Positions 33,524 to 54,341 of a stretch of 64,000 nucleotides of DNA are shown piece by piece; positions within the stretch are counted from its first letter, which is position 1, and the number at the start of each line of letters is the position of its first letter. The notes under the pieces are model-generated. The model did not search any database. It had not been told where the DNA came from and worked only from the letters and a program-made list of their open reading frames with translations. Where the stretch lies: sequence record NC_014467.1; one strand, 5' to 3'. The DNA is from Escherichia phage RB16. Made by a program: the position numbers and the translations under genes.

Positions 33524-33797
33524 CAGATATGAAAAATATTTCGGTGAGAACCCCCGATATTCTCACCTGTTGCGTATGCTGGGAATGAAACATATCATTG
33601 CCACTTCTGACGAAGCAGGGGAAACCAGCGCAGTTTGTTTGACCATCATGAAGGGTGCATGGCATTCATCACGAACATGGTCAATCTTCATGCTTGATAC
33701 ACTGGACGACGATACGCTATCATATACTATTGATTCATCGGTTGTTCAATTGATCACTGAATTATGTGAACGGATTTTAAATGAAACTAAAAACTAA
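33516..33797 (+). CDS. hypothetical protein (GTG start)
   Basis: 93 aa track ORF beginning on GTG; may be a remnant next to the homing endonuclease insertion. Confidence 0.25.
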   Translation: MHSRYEKYFGENPRYSHLLRMLGMKHIIATSDEAGETSAVCLTIMKGAWHSSRTWSIFMLDTLDDDTLSYTIDSSVVQLITELCERILNETKN

Positions 33798-34311
33798 ATC
33801 ACATGGAGGTGGAAACCGAACAATTGATGATGAAATTTCTTCAATAAATGAACTACTTCCTATGTTGGATGTTGATGTTGTATTAGGAAAGATATACTGG
33901 AAAAACTCACCTCGTAAGAGCGTCCCTGCTGGAACTGAAGCAGGGAGTAAGACAAAACATGGTTACGTTGCTATCGGGTATAAAAAGACGTATTATAGAC
34001 GACATCGAATAATATTTTACGTCGCTAATGGTTATCTTCCTCTCGTAGTAGATCACAAACACGGTGTTGAATCTGGTGATGGAATAGATAACCTGCAAGA
34101 CATCACGCAACAACAAAACTCCGTTAAAATGAGAATGAGTAGAAGGAATTCTTCTGGGTTTAGAGGGGTTTCCTTTCACCAAAAATCAGGAAAATGGCAA
34201 TCATGTATTGTGTATAATAGAAAAACAATATATCTTGGTTTGTATGAAACACCAGAACTTGCACATAGTGCATATACAGACAAGCGAAAAGAATTATTTG
34301 GTGAAATATGA
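33781..34311 (+). CDS. HNH-AP2 homing endonuclease (Mob-like)
   Basis: 176 aa; HNH_3-type core YLPLVVDHKHGVESGDGIDNL and AP2-type DNA-binding region GVSFHQKSGKWQSCI...YLGLYETPELAHSAY; inserted between gp47 and gp46. Confidence 0.7.
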   Translation: MKLKTKSHGGGNRTIDDEISSINELLPMLDVDVVLGKIYWKNSPRKSVPAGTEAGSKTKHGYVAIGYKKTYYRRHRIIFYVANGYLPLVVDHKHGVESGDGIDNLQDITQQQNSVKMRMSRRNSSGFRGVSFHQKSGKWQSCIVYNRKTIYLGLYETPELAHSAYTDKRKELFGEI

Positions 34312-36005
34312 AATTAAATTTCCGTAAAATTAAGTATCAAAACATCTTATCAGTGGGTAATACCCCGATCGAACTTGAATTCGATACTGCAAAGAAAACC
34401 CTGATCACGGGTAAAAATGGTGGTGGTAAATCCACACTGATCGAAGCGTTGACGTATGCTCTTTTTGGTAAATCATTTCGTGATTTAAAAGTCGGGCAAC
34501 TGGTAAACAGTGTCAACAAAAAGAAATGTCTGGTTGAACTGGATATTGAATACGGGAAAGATTCGTACAAAGTCGTTCGCGGACAAAAGCCGAAAGTATT
34601 CGAGATCTGGAAAAACGGTGATAAGTTAGCAGAAGATTCAGCAGCGGGTGATTATCAATCTCAGCTTGAATCCATGCTCAATATTAACCTGGTTGGATTC
34701 AAACAGGTAATCGTGTTGGGTACTGCTGGCTATACTCCATTCATGGAACTGAAAACACCGGATCGCCGTAAACTGGTTGAAGACCTGTTGTCGCTATCGG
34801 TTATCAGTGAAATGGATAAGCTGAACAAATCATATGTCCGTGGTGTTAATCAGCAGTTGGATACCCTGTCAATGCAGGTTAACCACATCCAGCAGCAGAT
34901 CGCTACACACCAGCGCTTCATTGATGAACAGCGAGCTAAAGCGAACCAGAACAACGCACGATACAAAGAGATCTACGATAGCCACGTTGAAACCGCTAAG
35001 AACATCAAAGCACAGCTTATGCAGTTGCAAGCGGAGATCGCAGAAACGGTGATCACTGGTGCAGACCGAACGGAAGATATAAACAAACTCCGTGATGGCT
35101 ATACGCGCCTCTCTATGACTGTAGAACAGTTTAAAAAGCTGGAAGTGATGTATCAGAAAGGTGGTGAGTGTCCGGCCTGTAAACAGGCGATTAAGCCCAC
35201 TCCTGAACGCATGGAAGAGATCGCAAACAACATCAAAGCGGGTACGCAACGATTAACGCTGATCAAAACCAAACAGGACGAGTTGCAAGGCATTATGAAC
35301 GAGTTGCTTCAACAGCAACGCGCACTGAATGCTATGAAAACGAAATACGAAGCCCTGAAAGGTACGCTGCAAAATGAAGTTGCCAACGCTAAACGCGCAC
35401 AAGCGATCATGGAACAGGCAAGCGCGGAAGTTGTTATTGATGAAGAACCTGTTAAGCAGTTACAACAACAGGAAGCAGATCTGAACGATAAACGTCAAGG
35501 ATATGTGAAAGAAAAATATATCCGTGGTATCGTTACAGATATGTTAAAAGATTCTGGTGTAAAAGCCAGCATCGTAAAACGTTATATCCCGTACTTCAAC
35601 AAGCAGATCGCATACTATCTGGATCTGTTGGGCGCTGACTACCAGTTCACTTTAGATGATGAATTCAACGAATCAATCAAATCACTGGGGCGCGATGATT
35701 TTAGTTACGCATCATTTAGCCAGGGTGAACGCGCACGAATCAACCTTGCGTTGCTTATGACCTGGCGTGATGTAACAAGTAAAGTTTCTGGTGTTGATTT
35801 ATCGCTTCTGGTACTAGATGAAATCTTTGATGGTGCAATGGATAAAGAAGGTGGATTTGCAGTCAGAGCATTACTGGATGATATTGAAGGTAATGTTATT
35901 GTAATCAGTCATCAGGATTTAGATCCACAAGAATTTCATCGACATATTGTTATGTCTAAAGTAGGGAGATTCACCAAATGCAAGATAGTAAACAATGATT
36001 ACTAA
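34308..36005 (+). CDS. 46: recombination endonuclease subunit (gp46, Rad50/SbcC-like ATPase)
   Basis: 565 aa; Walker A GKNGGGKST; coiled coil with zinc hook CPACK; Walker B/D-loop LLVLDE. Confidence 0.85.
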   Translation: MKLNFRKIKYQNILSVGNTPIELEFDTAKKTLITGKNGGGKSTLIEALTYALFGKSFRDLKVGQLVNSVNKKKCLVELDIEYGKDSYKVVRGQKPKVFEIWKNGDKLAEDSAAGDYQSQLESMLNINLVGFKQVIVLGTAGYTPFMELKTPDRRKLVEDLLSLSVISEMDKLNKSYVRGVNQQLDTLSMQVNHIQQQIATHQRFIDEQRAKANQNNARYKEIYDSHVETAKNIKAQLMQLQAEIAETVITGADRTEDINKLRDGYTRLSMTVEQFKKLEVMYQKGGECPACKQAIKPTPERMEEIANNIKAGTQRLTLIKTKQDELQGIMNELLQQQRALNAMKTKYEALKGTLQNEVANAKRAQAIMEQASAEVVIDEEPVKQLQQQEADLNDKRQGYVKEKYIRGIVTDMLKDSGVKASIVKRYIPYFNKQIAYYLDLLGADYQFTLDDEFNESIKSLGRDDFSYASFSQGERARINLALLMTWRDVTSKVSGVDLSLLVLDEIFDGAMDKEGGFAVRALLDDIEGNVIVISHQDLDPQEFHRHIVMSKVGRFTKCKIVNNDY

Positions 36006-36570
36006 AAACTGGGACGACGAATTTCAAGCCGAGATTCGTCGTCGGTTTTACCATGTAAACGGGGTTTTGTATCACAAGACGGAGAGTAAACAAACTGCTT
36101 TTTCTCCGGCGGGATACTATTTCAAACCTGGTGATATGGTGAAATGTCACAAAACTAGGAAAAAGACTCCATATTTACAGATTTGTATGCGATATGAAGG
36201 GAAGTCTAACTATCTATACGTACATAGGGTTGTGTGGTTTCTTGAATATGGGTATCAGGTTGATACGATCGACCATATCGATCTAAATCCTTTAAATAAT
36301 GATCCATCGAATCTTAGAGAAGCAAGCACACAGCAGAACCATTACAACAAAAATGGAAAACCTAACACTTCCTCCACTTACAAGGGTGTATCATGGGATA
36401 AATCAACTTGCAAATGGAAAGTGGGTATTCAGCATAATAAGAAAAAGATTCATTTAGGATATTTTGATGATGAAGTCGAAGCGGCTAAGGCATACGATGC
36501 AAAGGCAATTGAAATTGGTGGACAATATGCGAGGTTAAACTTCCATGATTATGTTAGAACGAGAATTTGA
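35995..36570 (+). CDS. HNH-AP2 homing endonuclease (Mob-like)
   Basis: 191 aa; HRVVW...IDHIDLNPLNNDPSNLR HNH_3 motif and AP2-like KGVSWDKSTCKWKVGI...LGYFDDEVEAAKAY. Confidence 0.7.
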   Translation: MITKNWDDEFQAEIRRRFYHVNGVLYHKTESKQTAFSPAGYYFKPGDMVKCHKTRKKTPYLQICMRYEGKSNYLYVHRVVWFLEYGYQVDTIDHIDLNPLNNDPSNLREASTQQNHYNKNGKPNTSSTYKGVSWDKSTCKWKVGIQHNKKKIHLGYFDDEVEAAKAYDAKAIEIGGQYARLNFHDYVRTRI

Positions 36571-40524: not shown

Positions 40525-42777
40525 ATGAGTGATATTAAAACAGTAGTAAAATCTTCTGGCGTAAGTCAGACATTTGAAAAAGAAAAACTGTTCAAAGTCC
40601 TTAATTGGGCGAGTGCTGGAAAGAATATTGATGTTAACGCATTCCTTGAAAATGTTGTTGACCTGCTTCGTGATGGTATGACTACCAAACAGATCCAGGC
40701 TGTAGCAATCAAGTATGCAGCGGATCGAATCTCCGTTAAAGAACCTGACTGGCAGTATGTAGCGGCTAACCTCGAAATGTTCGCCCTTCGTAAAACCGTT
40801 TACGGGCAGTTTGACCCGATCCCGTTCTACGAACACATCACTAAGCTGGTTGAGGCAGGAAAATACGATAAAGAAATCCTGACCAAATGGACTAAATCCG
40901 ATATCGAATATTTCGAAGAGAATATTAATCACGATAAAGATTTTGAATTCTCTTATGCTGGCGTTCAACAGTTGATCGGGAAATATCTGTTGCAGGATCG
41001 CACCAACGGCGATATCTACGAAACACCACAGTATGCATTCATGCTGATTGCGATGTGTTTACACCAGGATGAACCGCGCACCCTGTCGGCGTTTAATCAT
41101 GTGGTTGACTTCTATAACGCAATTTCGGATCGTAAACTGTCATTACCTACGCCTATTATGGCGGGTGTGCGTACTCCTACGCGTCAGTTCTCCAGTTGTG
41201 TTGTAATCGAATCTGGTGATTCTCTGGGTTCTCTGAACGCTGTTACGTCCGCGATCGTGAAATATATCTCTCAACGTGCGGGTATCGGTGTCAACGCCGG
41301 ACACATTCGCGCTATGGGTTCAAAAATCCGTGGTGGTGAAGCAGTCCATACAGGCGTTATCCCGTTCTGGAAACACATTCAGACGGCGGTTAAATCTTGT
41401 TCCCAGGGTGGCGTTCGTGGTGGTGCAGCAACCCTGTATTATCCGATCTGGCATCTTGAAGTTGAAAACCTGCTGGTTCTGAAAAATAACCGTGGCGTTG
41501 AAGAAAACCGTATTCGTCACCTGGACTATGGCGTACAGCTTAACGATTTGATGTATAAGCGTTTAATCAATAACGATTACATCACTCTGTTCAGCCCTGA
41601 CGTTGCGAATGATCGCCTCTATGACGCGTTCTATCAAGCGGATCAGACTGAGTTTGAAGAACTCTATACCAGTCTGGAAAAAGACCCAGCGGTACGCAAG
41701 AAACGTATTAAAGCGGTAGATCTGTTCCAGTTGCTTGTTCAGGAACGCGCACAGACCGGACGCAAATACATTTTCAACAGTCACCATGTAAACCAGCAGG
41801 GTAGTTTCTCTGTTCCGATTCGTATGTCGAACCTGTGCTGTGAAATCGCGATCCCAACTTCACCGCTGGATGATGATGATAAACTGGCTGGCGAAATTGG
41901 ACTGTGTACGCTTATGGCGATCGTTCTCGATAATGCCGATATAAGCGAATTCCCAGCCCTTACACGCATCGCAGTACGCGCACTGGATAACTTGCTGGAT
42001 TACCAGAACTACCCTGTTGCGGCGGCTCTGAAAGCCAAACAGCGTCGTTCTCTGGGTGTGGGTATCACCAACTATGCATCATGGCTGGCAAGCAACTATT
42101 GCGACTACTCCGAAGCATACGCCGGAAACGTTCATGAGTTGATGGAAGCGTTTCAATTTAACCTGCTGGTTGCCTCTATGGAACTCGCACAGGAACGCGG
42201 TGCATGTGGACTGTTCCACGAAACGAAATATGCACAAGGGCTGTTGCCTATTGACTGGTACTGCAAAAACGTTGATGAACTGGCATCACCTGTGTATAAC
42301 TGCGACTGGGAATGGTTACGCGGTGAAATCAAAAAACATGGCTTGCGTAACTCAACACTTTCTGCTTTAATGCCTTGTGAAAGTAGCTCACAGGTGAGTA
42401 ACTCAACCAACGGGATCGAACCTCCACGCGGCCCTGTGAGTGTGAAATCTTCTAAGGAAGGTTCATTCAATCAGGTAGTACCGAACCAGAATAATCAGAT
42501 TGACTTCTATGATTATCTCTGGACAATGGCAAAACGCGGAAATAAAGGTTATCTGGCTCACGTAGCGGTTATGCAGAAGTTTGTTGATCAGGCTATCTCT
42601 GCAAACACCAACTATGATCCGGCTAACTTCCCAGATGGTAAAGTGAAATCTGAAATCATCCTTGAAGATCTGCTGTATGCAAACTATTTCGGCATCAAAA
42701 CGCTGTACTACCACAACACCCGCGACGGTGCAGGTGAGGAAGAAGCGGAAGATTCATGTGAGGGATGCAAAATTTAA
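40525..42777 (+). CDS. nrdA: ribonucleoside-diphosphate reductase large subunit (class Ia)
   Basis: 750 aa; N-terminal ATP-cone; catalytic region NLCCEI; C-terminal Cys pair CEGCK. Confidence 0.9.
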   Translation: MSDIKTVVKSSGVSQTFEKEKLFKVLNWASAGKNIDVNAFLENVVDLLRDGMTTKQIQAVAIKYAADRISVKEPDWQYVAANLEMFALRKTVYGQFDPIPFYEHITKLVEAGKYDKEILTKWTKSDIEYFEENINHDKDFEFSYAGVQQLIGKYLLQDRTNGDIYETPQYAFMLIAMCLHQDEPRTLSAFNHVVDFYNAISDRKLSLPTPIMAGVRTPTRQFSSCVVIESGDSLGSLNAVTSAIVKYISQRAGIGVNAGHIRAMGSKIRGGEAVHTGVIPFWKHIQTAVKSCSQGGVRGGAATLYYPIWHLEVENLLVLKNNRGVEENRIRHLDYGVQLNDLMYKRLINNDYITLFSPDVANDRLYDAFYQADQTEFEELYTSLEKDPAVRKKRIKAVDLFQLLVQERAQTGRKYIFNSHHVNQQGSFSVPIRMSNLCCEIAIPTSPLDDDDKLAGEIGLCTLMAIVLDNADISEFPALTRIAVRALDNLLDYQNYPVAAALKAKQRRSLGVGITNYASWLASNYCDYSEAYAGNVHELMEAFQFNLLVASMELAQERGACGLFHETKYAQGLLPIDWYCKNVDELASPVYNCDWEWLRGEIKKHGLRNSTLSALMPCESSSQVSNSTNGIEPPRGPVSVKSSKEGSFNQVVPNQNNQIDFYDYLWTMAKRGNKGYLAHVAVMQKFVDQAISANTNYDPANFPDGKVKSEIILEDLLYANYFGIKTLYYHNTRDGAGEEEAEDSCEGCKI

Positions 42778-42806: not shown

Positions 42807-43295
42807 ATGATAACACAATCGCGATTGAAAGAATTATTGACGTATGACAAAGAAACTGGTATTTTTCACTGGAAAGTAAAACTGAATAACAACCATGACA
42901 TAACAAAACCTGCTGGCGTTGTGTATGATGGATATGTTAGGATACAGGTAGACGGTAAAAAATATCGAGCGCACCGATTAGCGTGGTTGTATGTATATGG
43001 CTATATGCCAGAACTTATCGACCACAAAAACGGAATAACTACCGATAATTGGATAGATAATTTGCGGATTGCTTCATGCACTCAAAATCAATACAACAGC
43101 AAGATTCGAAAAGATAACACGTCTGGAATCAAAGGCGTTTCTTTTCATAAAAGAACTGGAAAATGGCAAGCAAAATGCCGTGTTGATGGAATAGTTCATT
43201 ATTTGGGATTATTCCACACAACAACCGAAGCCGAATCCGCTGTAATTGCGTTTCGACATAAACACCATCAAGAATATAGTAACGACGGGAAATAA
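42807..43295 (+). CDS. mobE: HNH-AP2 homing endonuclease between nrdA and nrdB (MobE position)
   Basis: HNH_3 motif HRLAW...IDHKNGITTDNWIDNLR and AP2-like GVSFHKRTGKWQAKC; T4 also carries mobE between nrdA and nrdB. Confidence 0.7.
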   Translation: MITQSRLKELLTYDKETGIFHWKVKLNNNHDITKPAGVVYDGYVRIQVDGKKYRAHRLAWLYVYGYMPELIDHKNGITTDNWIDNLRIASCTQNQYNSKIRKDNTSGIKGVSFHKRTGKWQAKCRVDGIVHYLGLFHTTTEAESAVIAFRHKHHQEYSNDGK

Positions 43296-43296
43296 T

Positions 43297-44472
43297 ATGC
43301 TTACAGTAATGAATACAAACCCAGATCACAAACACTTAGAACAGCCTATGTTCTTTGGCGAAGATACTGGGGTTGCGCGATACGAAGAACAAAAGCATCG
43401 TGTGTTTGAAAATCTTACGGAAAAACAGTTATCCTTCTTTTGGCGTCCAGAAGAAATTGACTTATCGATCGACCGTATGCAGTACGCGAAAATGCCGGAA
43501 CACGAAAAAATCATTTTCGATTCGAACCTGCAATATCAAACCCTGTTGGATACCATTCAGGGGCGCGGCCCTAACCTGGCTTTCCTCCCTATCGCTTCCG
43601 ATGTCTCGATGGAAACGTGGATCGAAACATGGGCGTTCAGTGAAACAATCCATAGCCGCAGTTATACGCACATTCAGCGCAACCTACACATCGACCCGTC
43701 AAAAGAGTTCGATAAAATTCTGCGCAACGAAGCGATCATGAAACGTTCGGCTTCCATGACAAAATACTACGATGACCTGATCGCAGAATGTCACGAACTG
43801 AAAAACATTGTGCTCAAAATCGAAATGTTAACGTCCCACGGATACCCAGACGAATCGATCGCAGAGTACGAAAAGAAACGCAAAGAGCAAATGCGTAAAT
43901 GTAAGATTGCTCTGTACCTGTGTATGCACGCTGTCAACGCTCTGGAAGCGATCCGCTTCTACGTGTCGTTTACCTTCACGTTCAACTTTGCCGAACAAGG
44001 TAAGATGGAAGGTAACGCGAAGATCATGCGTCTGATTGCCCGTGATGAAGCACTTCATCAGAAAGGTACTCAAAGCAAGATCCGACTCTGGCAAATGGGT
44101 AAAGACGACCCAGAAATGGCAGAAATCGCATTCCAGTATGAAGAGGAAGCGACACAGATTTTCCTTGAAGTATACGAACAGGAAAAAGAATGGGCTGAAC
44201 ACCTGTTCTCTATCGGTGACGTAGACGGCGTATCCCTGAAAAGTACGATCGCCTATATCGAACACCTGACGGATCAGCGTATGCGAGCGGTTGGCCTACA
44301 GTCTCCATTTAAACCTTCACCGAACCCGTATCCGTGGATGAATAAATGGTTGAAGTCAGACAACGTACAGGTAGCCCCGCAAGAGGTAGAAGTAAGTTCT
44401 TACCTGGTTGGCAACCTTAACACTGAGATCAGCGACGAAGCCTATGCAAAATGGCGACAAAAATACGCGTAA
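43297..44472 (+). CDS. nrdB: ribonucleoside-diphosphate reductase small subunit
   Basis: Start placed at MLTVMNTNPD; di-iron ligand helices (E...H, EALH) present; uninterrupted. Confidence 0.85.
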   Translation: MLTVMNTNPDHKHLEQPMFFGEDTGVARYEEQKHRVFENLTEKQLSFFWRPEEIDLSIDRMQYAKMPEHEKIIFDSNLQYQTLLDTIQGRGPNLAFLPIASDVSMETWIETWAFSETIHSRSYTHIQRNLHIDPSKEFDKILRNEAIMKRSASMTKYYDDLIAECHELKNIVLKIEMLTSHGYPDESIAEYEKKRKEQMRKCKIALYLCMHAVNALEAIRFYVSFTFTFNFAEQGKMEGNAKIMRLIARDEALHQKGTQSKIRLWQMGKDDPEMAEIAFQYEEEATQIFLEVYEQEKEWAEHLFSIGDVDGVSLKSTIAYIEHLTDQRMRAVGLQSPFKPSPNPYPWMNKWLKSDNVQVAPQEVEVSSYLVGNLNTEISDEAYAKWRQKYA

Positions 44473-49780: not shown

Positions 49781-49857
49781 GGCCCTTTAGCTTAATTGGT
49801 TAGAGCGGGTGACTCATAATCGCGCGGTTGCTGGTTCGAATCCAGCAGGGGCCACCA
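49781..49857 (+). tRNA. tRNA with anticodon CAU (Met, or Ile if lysidine-modified)
   Basis: Hand-folded cloverleaf: acceptor GGCCCTT/AGGGGCC, T-loop GGTTCGAATCC, anticodon loop CTCATAA, 3' CCA encoded. Confidence 0.75.
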
Positions 49858-49862
49858 AATAC

Positions 49863-49938
49863 GCAGGTGTAGTTCAATTGGTAGAATATCTGGTTTCCAT
49901 CCAGATTGTTGAGGGTTCGAGTCCCTTCACCTGCTCCA
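49863..49938 (+). tRNA. tRNA-Gly (anticodon UCC)
   Basis: Acceptor GCAGGTG/CACCTGC, T-loop GGTTCGAGTCC, anticodon loop TTTCCAT, 3' CCA encoded. Confidence 0.75.
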
Positions 49939-50515: not shown

Positions 50516-50541
50516 AGGCTATCTTCGGATAGCCTTTTTTC
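50516..50541 (+). terminator. rho-independent terminator (AGGCTATC-TTCG-GATAGCCT + TTTTTT)
   Basis: 8-bp stem, UUCG tetraloop, T-run. Confidence 0.6.
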
Positions 50542-50552
50542 TGGAGAAGCAC

Positions 50553-51122
50553 ATGCGCTTTTTAAAATACGCAAGCTGGCTTGTACTGGTTCCACTGGAT
50601 ATTCTTTCTGGTGTTCTGGCTATTCTGCTGGCTCCTTTCGTGGTTCCGTTCTATAGTGAAGAAACCGGACACTTACCTAAAGGGTTCCGTTGGATGGAAA
50701 CATTCGATAACCCGATCGATGGTGATGGTGGACATATCCGGCGTTGGGCTAACATCCGGTATCACTTAGGCGCTCTGGGTGTGTATACGCAACGTGTAGG
50801 CTGGTTGTGGCGTAACAAGGCGTACAACTTCGCTTATCACGTCTTAGGGCGTGAAGCACAATCAGACTTCGCCTGGAAGGGCAACCCGAAAACAGAAGGT
50901 GGTTCCGATCCATCACGTCACGGTTATCTGTTGATGTGGAATGATTCGGCATGGGGGCTTTATGTCTTCAAACCGTGGCTTAAAGTCGGAAAGGTTCAGT
51001 TCTGCTTACGCGTGTATTGCGGGTGGAAACTGAAACAGGAAGTAACTGACCCGAACGGGCTGGATCGTGCAATGCTGGCGTTCCATATCAACCCGTTGCG
51101 TTATTATGTCGTAGAAAGGTAA
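50553..51122 (+). CDS. membrane protein, unknown function
   Basis: 189 aa; N-terminal TM helices ([25 protein letters not shown]). Confidence 0.5.
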
Positions 51123-51126
51123 TACA

Positions 51127-51489
51127 ATGAAAGCATATCAGATTTTAGAAGGTTTACACACTGGCACAATCTACATGGAAGAAGGTAATGATGTTCGTGT
51201 GGTGGTATCCAAAACCCTCGAAATGGATTCAGTGATCGGTAAAGCTCGCGTTGCTCCATTCGCAAAACGTGAAGTCGATATTGAATTTCAACCCACTGTT
51301 AAAGTGGAAGGTGGACAACACTTAAACGTAAACGTGTTGCGCCGCGAAACTCTGGAAGATGCTGTGAAGCATCCAGAAAAATACCCACAGTTAACGATCC
51401 GTGTGTCCGGCTATGCAGTGCGTTTCAATTCACTGACTCCTGAACAACAGCGCGACGTTATCGCCCGAACCTTTACAGAGAGTCTATAA
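51127..51489 (+). CDS. autonomous glycyl-radical cofactor (GrcA/YfiD-like)
   Basis: 120 aa; C-terminal ~65 aa carry the glycyl-radical motif [25 protein letters not shown] and appear near-identical to enterobacterial GrcA/pyruvate formate-lyase C-terminus. Confidence 0.8.
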
Positions 51490-51770
51490 TGGCGATTGAA
51501 GACGTACAGGGCTATAAGCCCCATTCAAAAGAAAAGATCGACAAAGTAAACCGCATCAAGGCCGCTGAAATTGCCCTGGGCGAAATCTTCAAAGAACTGG
51601 ATGAAGAGTATTCAAGCGATTACGCGGTATCAGATACCGATTCATTCACCACAGAAGAACTCGATGCGATGCTTGAACGTGTCCATCAAATCCAACTGGC
51701 GAAAGACCGACTGAAAGAAGCCTCTATGTGGGCGTGTCGTGCGGTGTTCCAGCCAGAAGAAAAGTATTAA
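51489..51770 (+). CDS. hypothetical protein
   Basis: 93 aa; ATGG coupling with upstream gene; followed by terminator. Confidence 0.45.
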   Translation: MAIEDVQGYKPHSKEKIDKVNRIKAAEIALGEIFKELDEEYSSDYAVSDTDSFTTEELDAMLERVHQIQLAKDRLKEASMWACRAVFQPEEKY

Positions 51771-51774
51771 AATC

Positions 51775-51808
51775 CAGCCGTTGCCGAAAGGTAGCGGCTT
51801 TTTTCGTT
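51775..51808 (+). terminator. rho-independent terminator (10-bp stem with G-U wobbles, GAAA loop, U-run)
   Basis: AGCCGTTGCC-GAAA-GGTAGCGGCT followed by TTTTTTCGTTTTT. Confidence 0.55.
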
Positions 51809-53219: not shown

Positions 53220-53821
53220 AACCAGTTATTCTTACCGACATTGACGGGATCGCCGTAAAATGGCAGTCGGGGTTGCCGTTCTTTTTGTCTAAACACAACA
53301 TGCCGACCGATATCGCGCTGGATATGGTTACGGATGAAAAGTTCCGCGATATGACCGAAATCTTCGGGTGTGATCACCAACTGGCGAAAATTCTCATGGA
53401 AGAATACAACAACAGTTCGTTTATTCGCTATCTAAGCGCGTATGACGATGCGTTGATTGTGATCAACCGTCTGAAAGCAAAGTATGATTTCGTGGCTGTC
53501 ACGGCGCTGGGAACTACTCCTACGGCAAGCCTGAACCGTATTGCGAACCTGAACACGCTGTTCCCTTCTGCATTCAAAGAGGTTTGTGTTGTCGGTCACG
53601 GCGAAACGAAAGTACATCGTTACCTGGAAGCCAAAGCAAAATATGGCGATCGTTTAGTATGTTTCATTGATGACCTTGCAGTAAACTTGAATGAGTGTCA
53701 TAACGTCATCAGTCAGTTGCCGTTATTCCATATGTTGCGTGGCGAACGTAGTGAACCGAGTGTACCTCATACTAAAGTGAATAACTGGCATGAAATTGAA
53801 AAAGCAATTGAGAACTCTTGA
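53216..53821 (+). CDS. HAD-superfamily hydrolase, putative 5'(3')-deoxyribonucleotidase
   Basis: 201 aa; N-terminal DxDG motif (ILTDIDGI) and late DD motif (VCFIDDLAVN). Confidence 0.5.
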   Translation: MKPVILTDIDGIAVKWQSGLPFFLSKHNMPTDIALDMVTDEKFRDMTEIFGCDHQLAKILMEEYNNSSFIRYLSAYDDALIVINRLKAKYDFVAVTALGTTPTASLNRIANLNTLFPSAFKEVCVVGHGETKVHRYLEAKAKYGDRLVCFIDDLAVNLNECHNVISQLPLFHMLRGERSEPSVPHTKVNNWHEIEKAIENS

Positions 53822-54341
53822 TGAAGAAACGCAAGGTATAGAAAACCTACTACAATGTATTCGAGTAGAACCAGAAACCGGAAAATGTTTCTGGTTGGAA
53901 AAGAGAAGTAATAAAATTCCTGCTGGAAGTGAAGCAGGTTCTTTTCATAAATCAAGTGGATATACGCGAATAAAATTCGAAAATGCGATGTACATCCGGT
54001 CAAGGGTGATATTTTATTACGTTAATGGTTATCTTCCAGTGATGGTTGACCATGTTCACGGTGTTGAATGCGGTGATATGATTTCTAATCTAAGGGAGTC
54101 CAATCAGGTAACAAATCAACAAAACCGCACACGGAATAAAAATAATACCGTTGGGTTTAAGGGCGTGTCATTCAACAAGAAATCGCAAAAATATAGCGCC
54201 AAAATCACTTTACATGGAGTGACTAAGTGGTTAGGATTTTATGATTCTGCCGAGGAAGCAAGTGAAGCATATAAGGCCAAAGCACTCGTTTCCTTTACAC
54301 ATAATGAAAGGTACTTAAATGATCTTACAGATTCTGAATGA
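53790..54341 (+). CDS. HNH-AP2 homing endonuclease (Mob-like)
   Basis: 183 aa; YLPVMVDHVHGVECGDMISNL and GVSFNKKSQKYSAKI...WLGFYDSAEEASEAY; paralog of 33781..34311; inserted upstream of DNA ligase. Confidence 0.7.
   Translation: MKLKKQLRTLDEETQGIENLLQCIRVEPETGKCFWLEKRSNKIPAGSEAGSFHKSSGYTRIKFENAMYIRSRVIFYYVNGYLPVMVDHVHGVECGDMISNLRESNQVTNQQNRTRNKNNTVGFKGVSFNKKSQKYSAKITLHGVTKWLGFYDSAEEASEAYKAKALVSFTHNERYLNDLTDSE

Follow-up and report, generated by a model that had tools for sequence, protein, structure and literature searches.

The GrcA/YfiD-like protein of Escherichia phage RB16 shares its entire C-terminal half, residue for residue, with E. coli GrcA, and from the comparison of codons and flanking genes we conclude that this identity is most plausibly owed to strong purifying selection, acting on a gene long resident in phages, and not to recent capture from the host. 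The gene is in all likelihood an orthologue of T4 vs.6 (Y06I) belonging to the RB16/RB43 lineage, and would encode a GrcA/YfiD-like stand-alone spare part for pyruvate formate-lyase (PFL) that is kept under constraint. In sister lineages the same half of the gene carries host-like DNA, and the pattern observed there differs from that of RB16.

RB16 (HM134276) is an RB43-type relative of T4 which was isolated on E. coli B/5 and has a genome of 176,789 bp (Petrov et al. 2010, PMC2993671). In the phage collection, the records closest to RB16 were ~92% identical and included Cronobacter phage GAP161 together with Enterobacter and Klebsiella phages. Both the gene class and the RB16 genome were already known, and biochemical characterisation of the T4 orthologue dates from 2001; RB16 itself adds one more copy of a known phage gene, with a host identity that is probably the product of purifying selection on a PflB-mimicking domain. 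The analysis covered sequence identity and homology, the pattern of selection, composition, and the context of the gene within the 64-kb stretch of RB16 DNA that is called the window below.

Gene neighbourhood and family assignment

The GrcA-like gene belongs to a three-gene unit located between two terminator-like hairpins, with a DUF7338 gene on its 5' side and an Acb2/Tad1-hairpin gene on its 3' side (Table 1). The stop codon of the DUF7338 gene (51120–51122) leaves a gap of 4 nt to the GrcA-like ATG, and the start of the Acb2/Tad1-hairpin gene overlaps the GrcA-like stop (TAATG), the two genes being translationally coupled. The product of this third gene belongs to a family which we take to be anti-CBASS nucleotide sponges; T4 vs.4 matches the Acb2_Tad1_hairpin family too (E = 7e-20). 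With its own ATG and Shine-Dalgarno-like site, and with neighbours 4 nt upstream and overlapping downstream, the GrcA-like frame stands alone and is no fragment of a larger enzyme. The antisense ORFs across the region in the ORF list were short (30–53 aa) and unsupported. A sigma-70 promoter scan around the gene found none, and such a scan says little for a T4-type phage.

Table 1. Coordinates of the features in the RB16 window and, where a locus is named, in related phages
Feature	Position	Strand	Remarks
HNH_3 + AP2 ORF, homing-endonuclease-like	33781–34311	+	
HNH_3 + AP2 ORF, homing-endonuclease-like	35995–36570	+	
nrdA	40525–42777	+	aerobic class Ia ribonucleotide reductase
nrdB	43246–44472	+	aerobic class Ia ribonucleotide reductase
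tRNA-Met (CAT)	49781–49857	+	
tRNA-Gly (TCC)	49863–49938	+	
Hairpin similar to that at 51776–51799	50516–50535		precedes the three-gene unit; consensus scan only
DUF7338 gene	50553–51122	+	189 aa; Pfam PF24027, E = 5e-65; PHROG 2143
Shine-Dalgarno-like AAAGG	51115–51119	+	7 nt 5' of the ATG; read from the sequence
GrcA-like CDS (vs.6/Y06I-type)	51127–51489	+	120 aa; ATG start, TAA stop included; ORF list
N-terminal half, codons 1–59	51127–51303	+	phage-type; putative counterpart of the YfiD disordered half that binds cleaved PFL
C-terminal half, codons 60–120	51304–51486	+	structured glycyl-radical domain; protein alignment
Gly95 codon, RVSGYAV motif	51409–51411	+	predicted radical-bearing Gly; PflB Gly734 equivalent via PflB alignment and PMC8683613
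Acb2/Tad1-hairpin gene	51489–51770	+	Pfam PF24729, E = 2e-17; T4 Vs.4 homologue
Terminator-like hairpin and T-run	51776–51799	+	closes the three-gene unit; consensus scan only
HNH_3 + AP2 ORF, homing-endonuclease-like	53790–54341	+	weak, below Pfam cut-offs
T4 vs.6 CDS	L002 2860–3219		scored against TIGR04365
vs.6 C-half, E. coli-like, T4	L002 3037–3222		
vs.6 with E. coli-like C-half, RPN187	L141 1369–1731		
vs.6 with E. coli-like C-half, IMG/VR loci	L004–L007, L015, L016		
grcA-like gene, Yersinia jumbo phage fHe-Yen9-04	L142 1495–1857		

Two tRNA genes occur 1.2 kb 5' of the GrcA-like gene, and the GrcA-like homologues of Aeromonas phage 44RR2.8t and of the T5-like phage DT57C likewise adjoin tRNA clusters. 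The nrdA and nrdB genes are situated 8–10 kb 5' of the gene, and nrdD was not found among the ten large ORFs of the window that were scanned with Pfam. Since a published nrdD phylogeny includes RB16 together with RB43 (PMC3653736), an RB16 nrdD would sit elsewhere in the genome. Of the three homing-endonuclease-like ORFs in the window, two are located on either side of an SMC/AAA (gp46-like) gene and the other adjoins the DNA ligase gene, in line with a published account of RB16 as rich in such genes (PMC2993671).

The initial annotation had named the gene class, GrcA/YfiD-like, from the sequence letters, and profile searches bore this out. The RB16 protein matched Pfam Gly_radical PF01228 with E = 2.5e-18 (67 bits against a cut-off of 22.2), and a phmmer comparison with the E. 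coli GrcA structure PDB 6OWR gave E = 3e-42. The alignment with PflB that had been proposed as a check placed residues 689–759 of the enzyme (PDB 1H16), its last 71, against RB16 residues 50–120 with E = 1.6e-26. The RB16 protein is separate and small compared with the 759-aa enzyme, and the residues that distinguish GrcA from PflB (e.g., a 12-residue GrcA stretch vs MNREMLLDAMEN) are of the GrcA type in RB16. The RVSGYAV motif was kept in all aligned homologues. This motif, the stand-alone size of ~14 kDa and the duplication of the PflB C-terminus were all found, as in the broad GrcA/YfiD class (InterPro IPR011140-like).

The profile of the bacterial GrcA equivalog, NCBIfam TIGR04365 (spare_glycyl), has a cut-off of 170 bits. 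E. coli GrcA scored 234 bits, while the RB16 protein (155.6 bits, with a match limited to profile positions 23–126) and T4 Y06I (151.1 bits) fell below the cut-off because of their divergent N-halves, so that by this score the RB16 protein falls outside the equivalog. Such below-cut-off scores may contribute to the uneven annotation of the phage copies as hypothetical protein, pyruvate formate-lyase, or acetyltransferase. On sequence grounds, the RB16 protein is best placed in the phage Vs.6/Y06I subfamily, since it has the phage-type N-half (a 14-residue stretch followed further on by SKT), matches PHROG 1209 over its full length (E = 1.2e-59, residues 1–120 over 121 profile positions), and is encoded in the vs/regB-proximal early region with a Vs.4 (Acb2) homologue adjoining. 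Enterobacter phage vB_Ecl_id4496 has the same gene order, the GrcA-like gene being followed by the Vs.4/Acb2 homologue.

The existence of a T4 homologue, from which the initial annotation had argued that the class was not new, was thereby confirmed as an orthology with T4 vs.6. Both proteins are 120 aa long and belong to PHROG 1209, with 53% identity in the N-half and 98% in the C-half, and the neighbourhood near the Acb2/Vs.4 homologue is shared. However, residue 73 is His in T4 and Arg in RB16 and E. coli, and vs.4 follows vs.6 in T4 only after a further small gene, vs.5, which RB16 lacks.

The host-identical protein half and its coding sequence

E. coli grcA was taken from a RefSeq chromosome and T4 vs.6 from NC_000866, and the sequences were compared by global alignment. 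RB16 residues 60–120 (VEGGQ...TESL, 61 aa) corresponded to E. coli GrcA residues 67–127 and were identical at 61/61 positions; the C-terminal ~65 residues had therefore rightly been called host-like, and the N-terminal ~55 residues do differ, as had also been stated. The N-halves of RB16 and E. coli GrcA were identical at 14/52 aligned residues (27%; BLASTP E = 2e-5), whereas bacterial N-halves were 52–100% identical to that of E. coli, with a median of 73% among the matches listed. The RB16 N-half does not have a conserved 14-residue bacterial motif and shows EG.H.GTIY in its place; nor does the protein carry the conserved bacterial N-half that is recognised by a 23-residue sequence. Apart from the identical half, the RB16 and E. 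coli proteins have in common the stand-alone size and the RVSGYAV motif, but the RB16 protein is 7 aa shorter, and its gene is part of a virulent phage operon whereas E. coli grcA adjoins ung. The boundary of host identity at RB16 residue 60 (YfiD residue 67) is close to the YfiD domain boundary.

Judged by these alignments, the RB16 N-half is homologous to the bacterial N-half and lies far outside the bacterial range. A tblastn search with the N-half alone as the query revealed the phage-type N-half in ~1000 phage records, and it was also recognisable in T5-like and jumbo phages. Comparison of RB16 with the KP15-type phage copy gave a dN of 0.09 against a dS of 1.2 for the N-half, which points to purifying selection on this segment as well.

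At the nucleotide level, the C-half of RB16 was 82–84% identical to E. coli grcA. Synonymous differences from E. coli were present in 29/60 codons and non-synonymous differences in none, which corresponds to 29 of ~44 synonymous sites (pS 0.66, dS ~1.6, dN 0). In each of the complete E. coli genomes (5426/5426), grcA was 80–90% nt-identical to the RB16 C-half, and none was higher. The initial annotation had offered recent capture from the host or strong constraint, and it is extremely improbable that the RB16 C-half was recently captured or overwritten by recombination from the grcA of the current host, E. coli. A host-derived C-half apparently did arise in relatives, namely in T4, in 489 phage records compared with E. 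coli and in 77 Klebsiella phage records compared with K. pneumoniae, all with 95–99% identity. In RB16, however, the identity to every E. coli genome and the dS are those given above, RB16-specific synonymous codons (TTA, GTA, TTG, GGA) occur throughout the C-half tract, and there is no compositional step. The GC3 was 0.46 in the C-half, 0.32 in the N-half and 0.44 ± 0.06 in the flanking phage genes; the compositional island test found none for the RB16 C-half, whose GC3 was within the range of the flanking genes, and the GC comparison that had been put forward as a check for capture consequently spoke against it. E. coli was thus rejected as a recent donor on identity and dS. A hidden short E. 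coli conversion patch in RB16 was likewise rejected, as the longest shared run of ~20 nt equals, by our own estimate, what chance would give at 84% identity over 183 nt.

A sample of bacterial grcA genes was collected with a back-translated pattern of 31 invariant residues and consisted of at least 120 loci, with 119 species usable; the selection on this invariant 31-aa stretch inflates the apparent conservation of that stretch. Among the matches listed from the 119 species, the best bacterial identity to the RB16 C-half was 84.2% nt, a value inside the bulk of the bacterium-versus-bacterium comparisons of the grcA C-half (median 82.5% nt among the matches listed). The last 60 aa were the same as in E. 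coli in at least 27 of the 119 listed bacterial species, at 80–98% nt identity, so full protein identity with saturated synonymous sites is normal in this domain. Further, the pS between the RB16 C-half and each of 10 bacterial sequences (9 species) tested was at least 0.65. The low nucleotide identity, the dS of ~1.6 and the GC3 in the phage range together suggest that the C-half match reflects purifying selection; of the two explanations first offered, constraint stands for RB16 and capture falls.

Recent capture of the C-half from an unsampled bacterium is also very unlikely. Salmonella, Cronobacter, Yersinia, Proteus, and Providencia were absent from the bacterial sample and would be candidate donors, and close RB16 relatives infect Cronobacter, Enterobacter, and Klebsiella. 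However, Siccibacter and Franconibacter, the nearest sampled relatives of Cronobacter, reached only 80–81% nt identity, the GrcA proteins of Klebsiella and Enterobacter have L/M..E for E..K at two positions, with 78–81% nt identity, and an RB16-specific 23-mer (CACTTAAACGTAAACGTGTTGCG) had 0 matches in the metagenome collection. Moreover, the phage-type 3' end (ACAGAG..CTATAATG) is common to RB16 and to the otherwise Klebsiella-converted contig L008, which suggests that the RB16-type sequence is the older phage state. As regards the sampled species, a donor among the hosts of related phages (Klebsiella, Enterobacter, Siccibacter, and Franconibacter; 77–81% nt) was rejected.

Long residence under purifying selection, the reading preferred here for RB16, can be set beside the distribution of the gene in phages. 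The RB16 allele was 97.8–100% identical in related phage contigs and 89.6% identical in KP15-type phages. In an earlier survey, vs.6 was kept in 6/6 diverse T4-like genomes and was among the few T4 ORFs of unknown function that were so conserved (PMC1524935).

Host-like tracts in related phages

T-even-type and Mosigvirus coliphages had a vs.6 C-half 96–98% nt-identical to E. coli grcA, with a dS of ~0.1, in contrast to the values for RB16, whose C-half was 82% identical to that of T4. The last 62 codons of T4 vs.6 showed 95% nt identity to E. coli grcA, and the dS over the last 60 codons was 0.096, compared to 0.23 between E. coli and E. albertii. Over the C-half, T4 vs.6 was 97–98% nt-identical to E. 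coli grcA, and across the genome set its identity was 95–99% in 5426/5426 E. coli genomes, with a best value of 98.4%. The compositional test was positive in T4 vs.6, where the N-half had a GC3 of 0.19 and the C-half one of 0.41. In KPV15-type Klebsiella phages, the C-half was 95–97% nt-identical to K. pneumoniae grcA; in the 77 Klebsiella phage records (~166 kb) retrieved with the K. pneumoniae query, the start of the match was constant at nt 199–202.

The extent of the tracts could be read from ungapped comparison. Counted back from the last nucleotide of the stop codon, E. coli-like DNA extended from 183 nt to ~8 nt in T4 and Mosigvirus RPN187, and K. pneumoniae-like DNA from 183 to 21 nt in the KPV15-like IMG/VR contig L008 (167 kb). 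The L008 tract had 2 mismatches in 163 nt against K. pneumoniae ATCC 13883 (L099), and the last 20 nt of the L008 gene were phage-type sequence resembling that of RB16. Retention of this phage-type 3' end argues for the replacement of a patch inside an existing phage gene. In T-even and KPV15-type phages, the sharp boundaries of the tracts suggest that host DNA was recently brought into the phage gene by conversion; recent capture, as first proposed, fits these phages (95–99% nt to host grcA) and not RB16 (80–90%). The KP15-like contigs L010 and L014 were the same as RB16 at both ends of the C-half and had a central cluster of differences in codons 76–107. This central patch encodes the Klebsiella-type residues L76 and E80, its synonymous sites were close to no sampled Klebsiella, and it may stem from conversion, either older or over a short stretch, or from convergent change.

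Taken as sequence comparisons, these results indicate that gene conversion from host to phage has occurred repeatedly and only in the conserved half, the RB16-type allele looking unconverted. We favour, with moderate confidence, a scheme in which the C-half of the gene in T4-like phages has been repeatedly patch-overwritten by the grcA of the current host through homologous recombination between phage and chromosome, RB16 being the unconverted baseline and the N-half being phage-adapted. The distribution of tracts under this scheme suggests E. coli DNA in Tequatrovirus and Mosigvirus, K. pneumoniae DNA in KPV15-type phages, and a small Klebsiella-type patch in KP15-type phages. For auxiliary metabolic genes, the exchange of gene segments between host and phage is known from cyanophage psbA. 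The T-even and KPV15-type vs.6 genes are similar to that case in having a host-like DNA patch with sharp boundaries, and differ from it in that the hosts are enterobacterial and the gene is grcA; the RB16 copy has no tract. In the literature searched, which did not reach the older T4 papers, no description of nucleotide-level host identity or of conversion of vs.6 was found.

Two routes may accordingly lead to host-identical phage proteins, saturated synonymous sites being the mark of constraint and identity of both protein and DNA the mark of recent conversion, so that codon-level checks are needed before transfer is called. The conversion pattern in the sister lineages came up beside the main question, and vs.6 may offer a naturally occurring model for how virulent phages recombine with the chromosome of their host. 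It also bears on phage typing. The grcA gene has been chosen as a core-gene qPCR tag for typing E. coli Straboviridae (PMC12845203, 2026); in T-even-type phages the conserved half is 96–98% identical to host grcA, and primers placed there risk amplifying host DNA.

Predicted role of the RB16 protein

In PMC8683613, YfiD and T4 Y06I are given as the two validated PFL spare parts (citing Wagner 2001 and Bowman 2019), which bind PFL cleaved at Gly734 and restore its activity once PflA has installed the glycyl radical; YfiD residues 61–127 are described there as structured and copying the PFL C-terminus, and residues 1–60 as disordered and promoting both the binding of cleaved PFL and radical installation. 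By analogy with YfiD and T4 Y06I, PflA, the enzyme that activates PFL in the host, would install the radical on Gly95 of the RB16 protein, and the structured C-half, as a copy of the host PflB C-terminus, would dock into PflB after its cleavage by oxygen at Gly734. Since the structured half is identical to that of E. coli, docking and activation can be expected to proceed alike. The N-half would be a phage-specific conserved variant of the YfiD segment that aids the binding of cleaved PFL. Because the C-half must fit both host PflB and host PflA, it would be under extreme purifying selection despite DNA at synonymous saturation.

Conversion of pyruvate to acetyl-CoA and formate would thus be restored in infected cells exposed to traces of oxygen, which may keep the fermentative ATP supply going in low-oxygen habitats and keep up formate for the class III (anaerobic) ribonucleotide reductase. 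Formate serves this enzyme as reductant, and a putative link between formate and NrdD would agree with the presence of RB16 and RB43 in the nrdD phylogeny (PMC3653736). It is reasonable to expect PflA activation, PFL rescue, and a benefit to the phage for RB16.

It is unlikely that the protein serves another glycyl-radical enzyme (TdcE or phage NrdD) or acts as a decoy for PflA or cleaved PFL, with an N-half that confers a new specificity. The distance of the N-half from its bacterial counterparts (27% identity vs the median of 73% among the matches listed), its purifying selection and its conservation in ~1000 phage genomes would be consistent with such a role, as would the position of a grcA-like gene between nrdD and nrdG in one jumbo phage; spare parts for other glycyl-radical enzymes are a subject of speculation in PMC8683613. 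However, the structured half is 100% identical to that of E. coli GrcA, the best match among the enzymes was the PflB C-terminus at the E-value given above, with the others at E = 1e-12 or worse, and T4 Y06I, whose N-half is of the same type, reconstitutes PFL in vitro after cleavage (Wagner 2001, cited in PMC8683613). The jumbo phage in question is Yersinia phage fHe-Yen9-04, in which the grcA-like gene has a phage-type N-half and is located between nrdD (g130) and nrdG (g135), an arrangement that hints at a functional link of PFL-derived formate with anaerobic dNTP synthesis.
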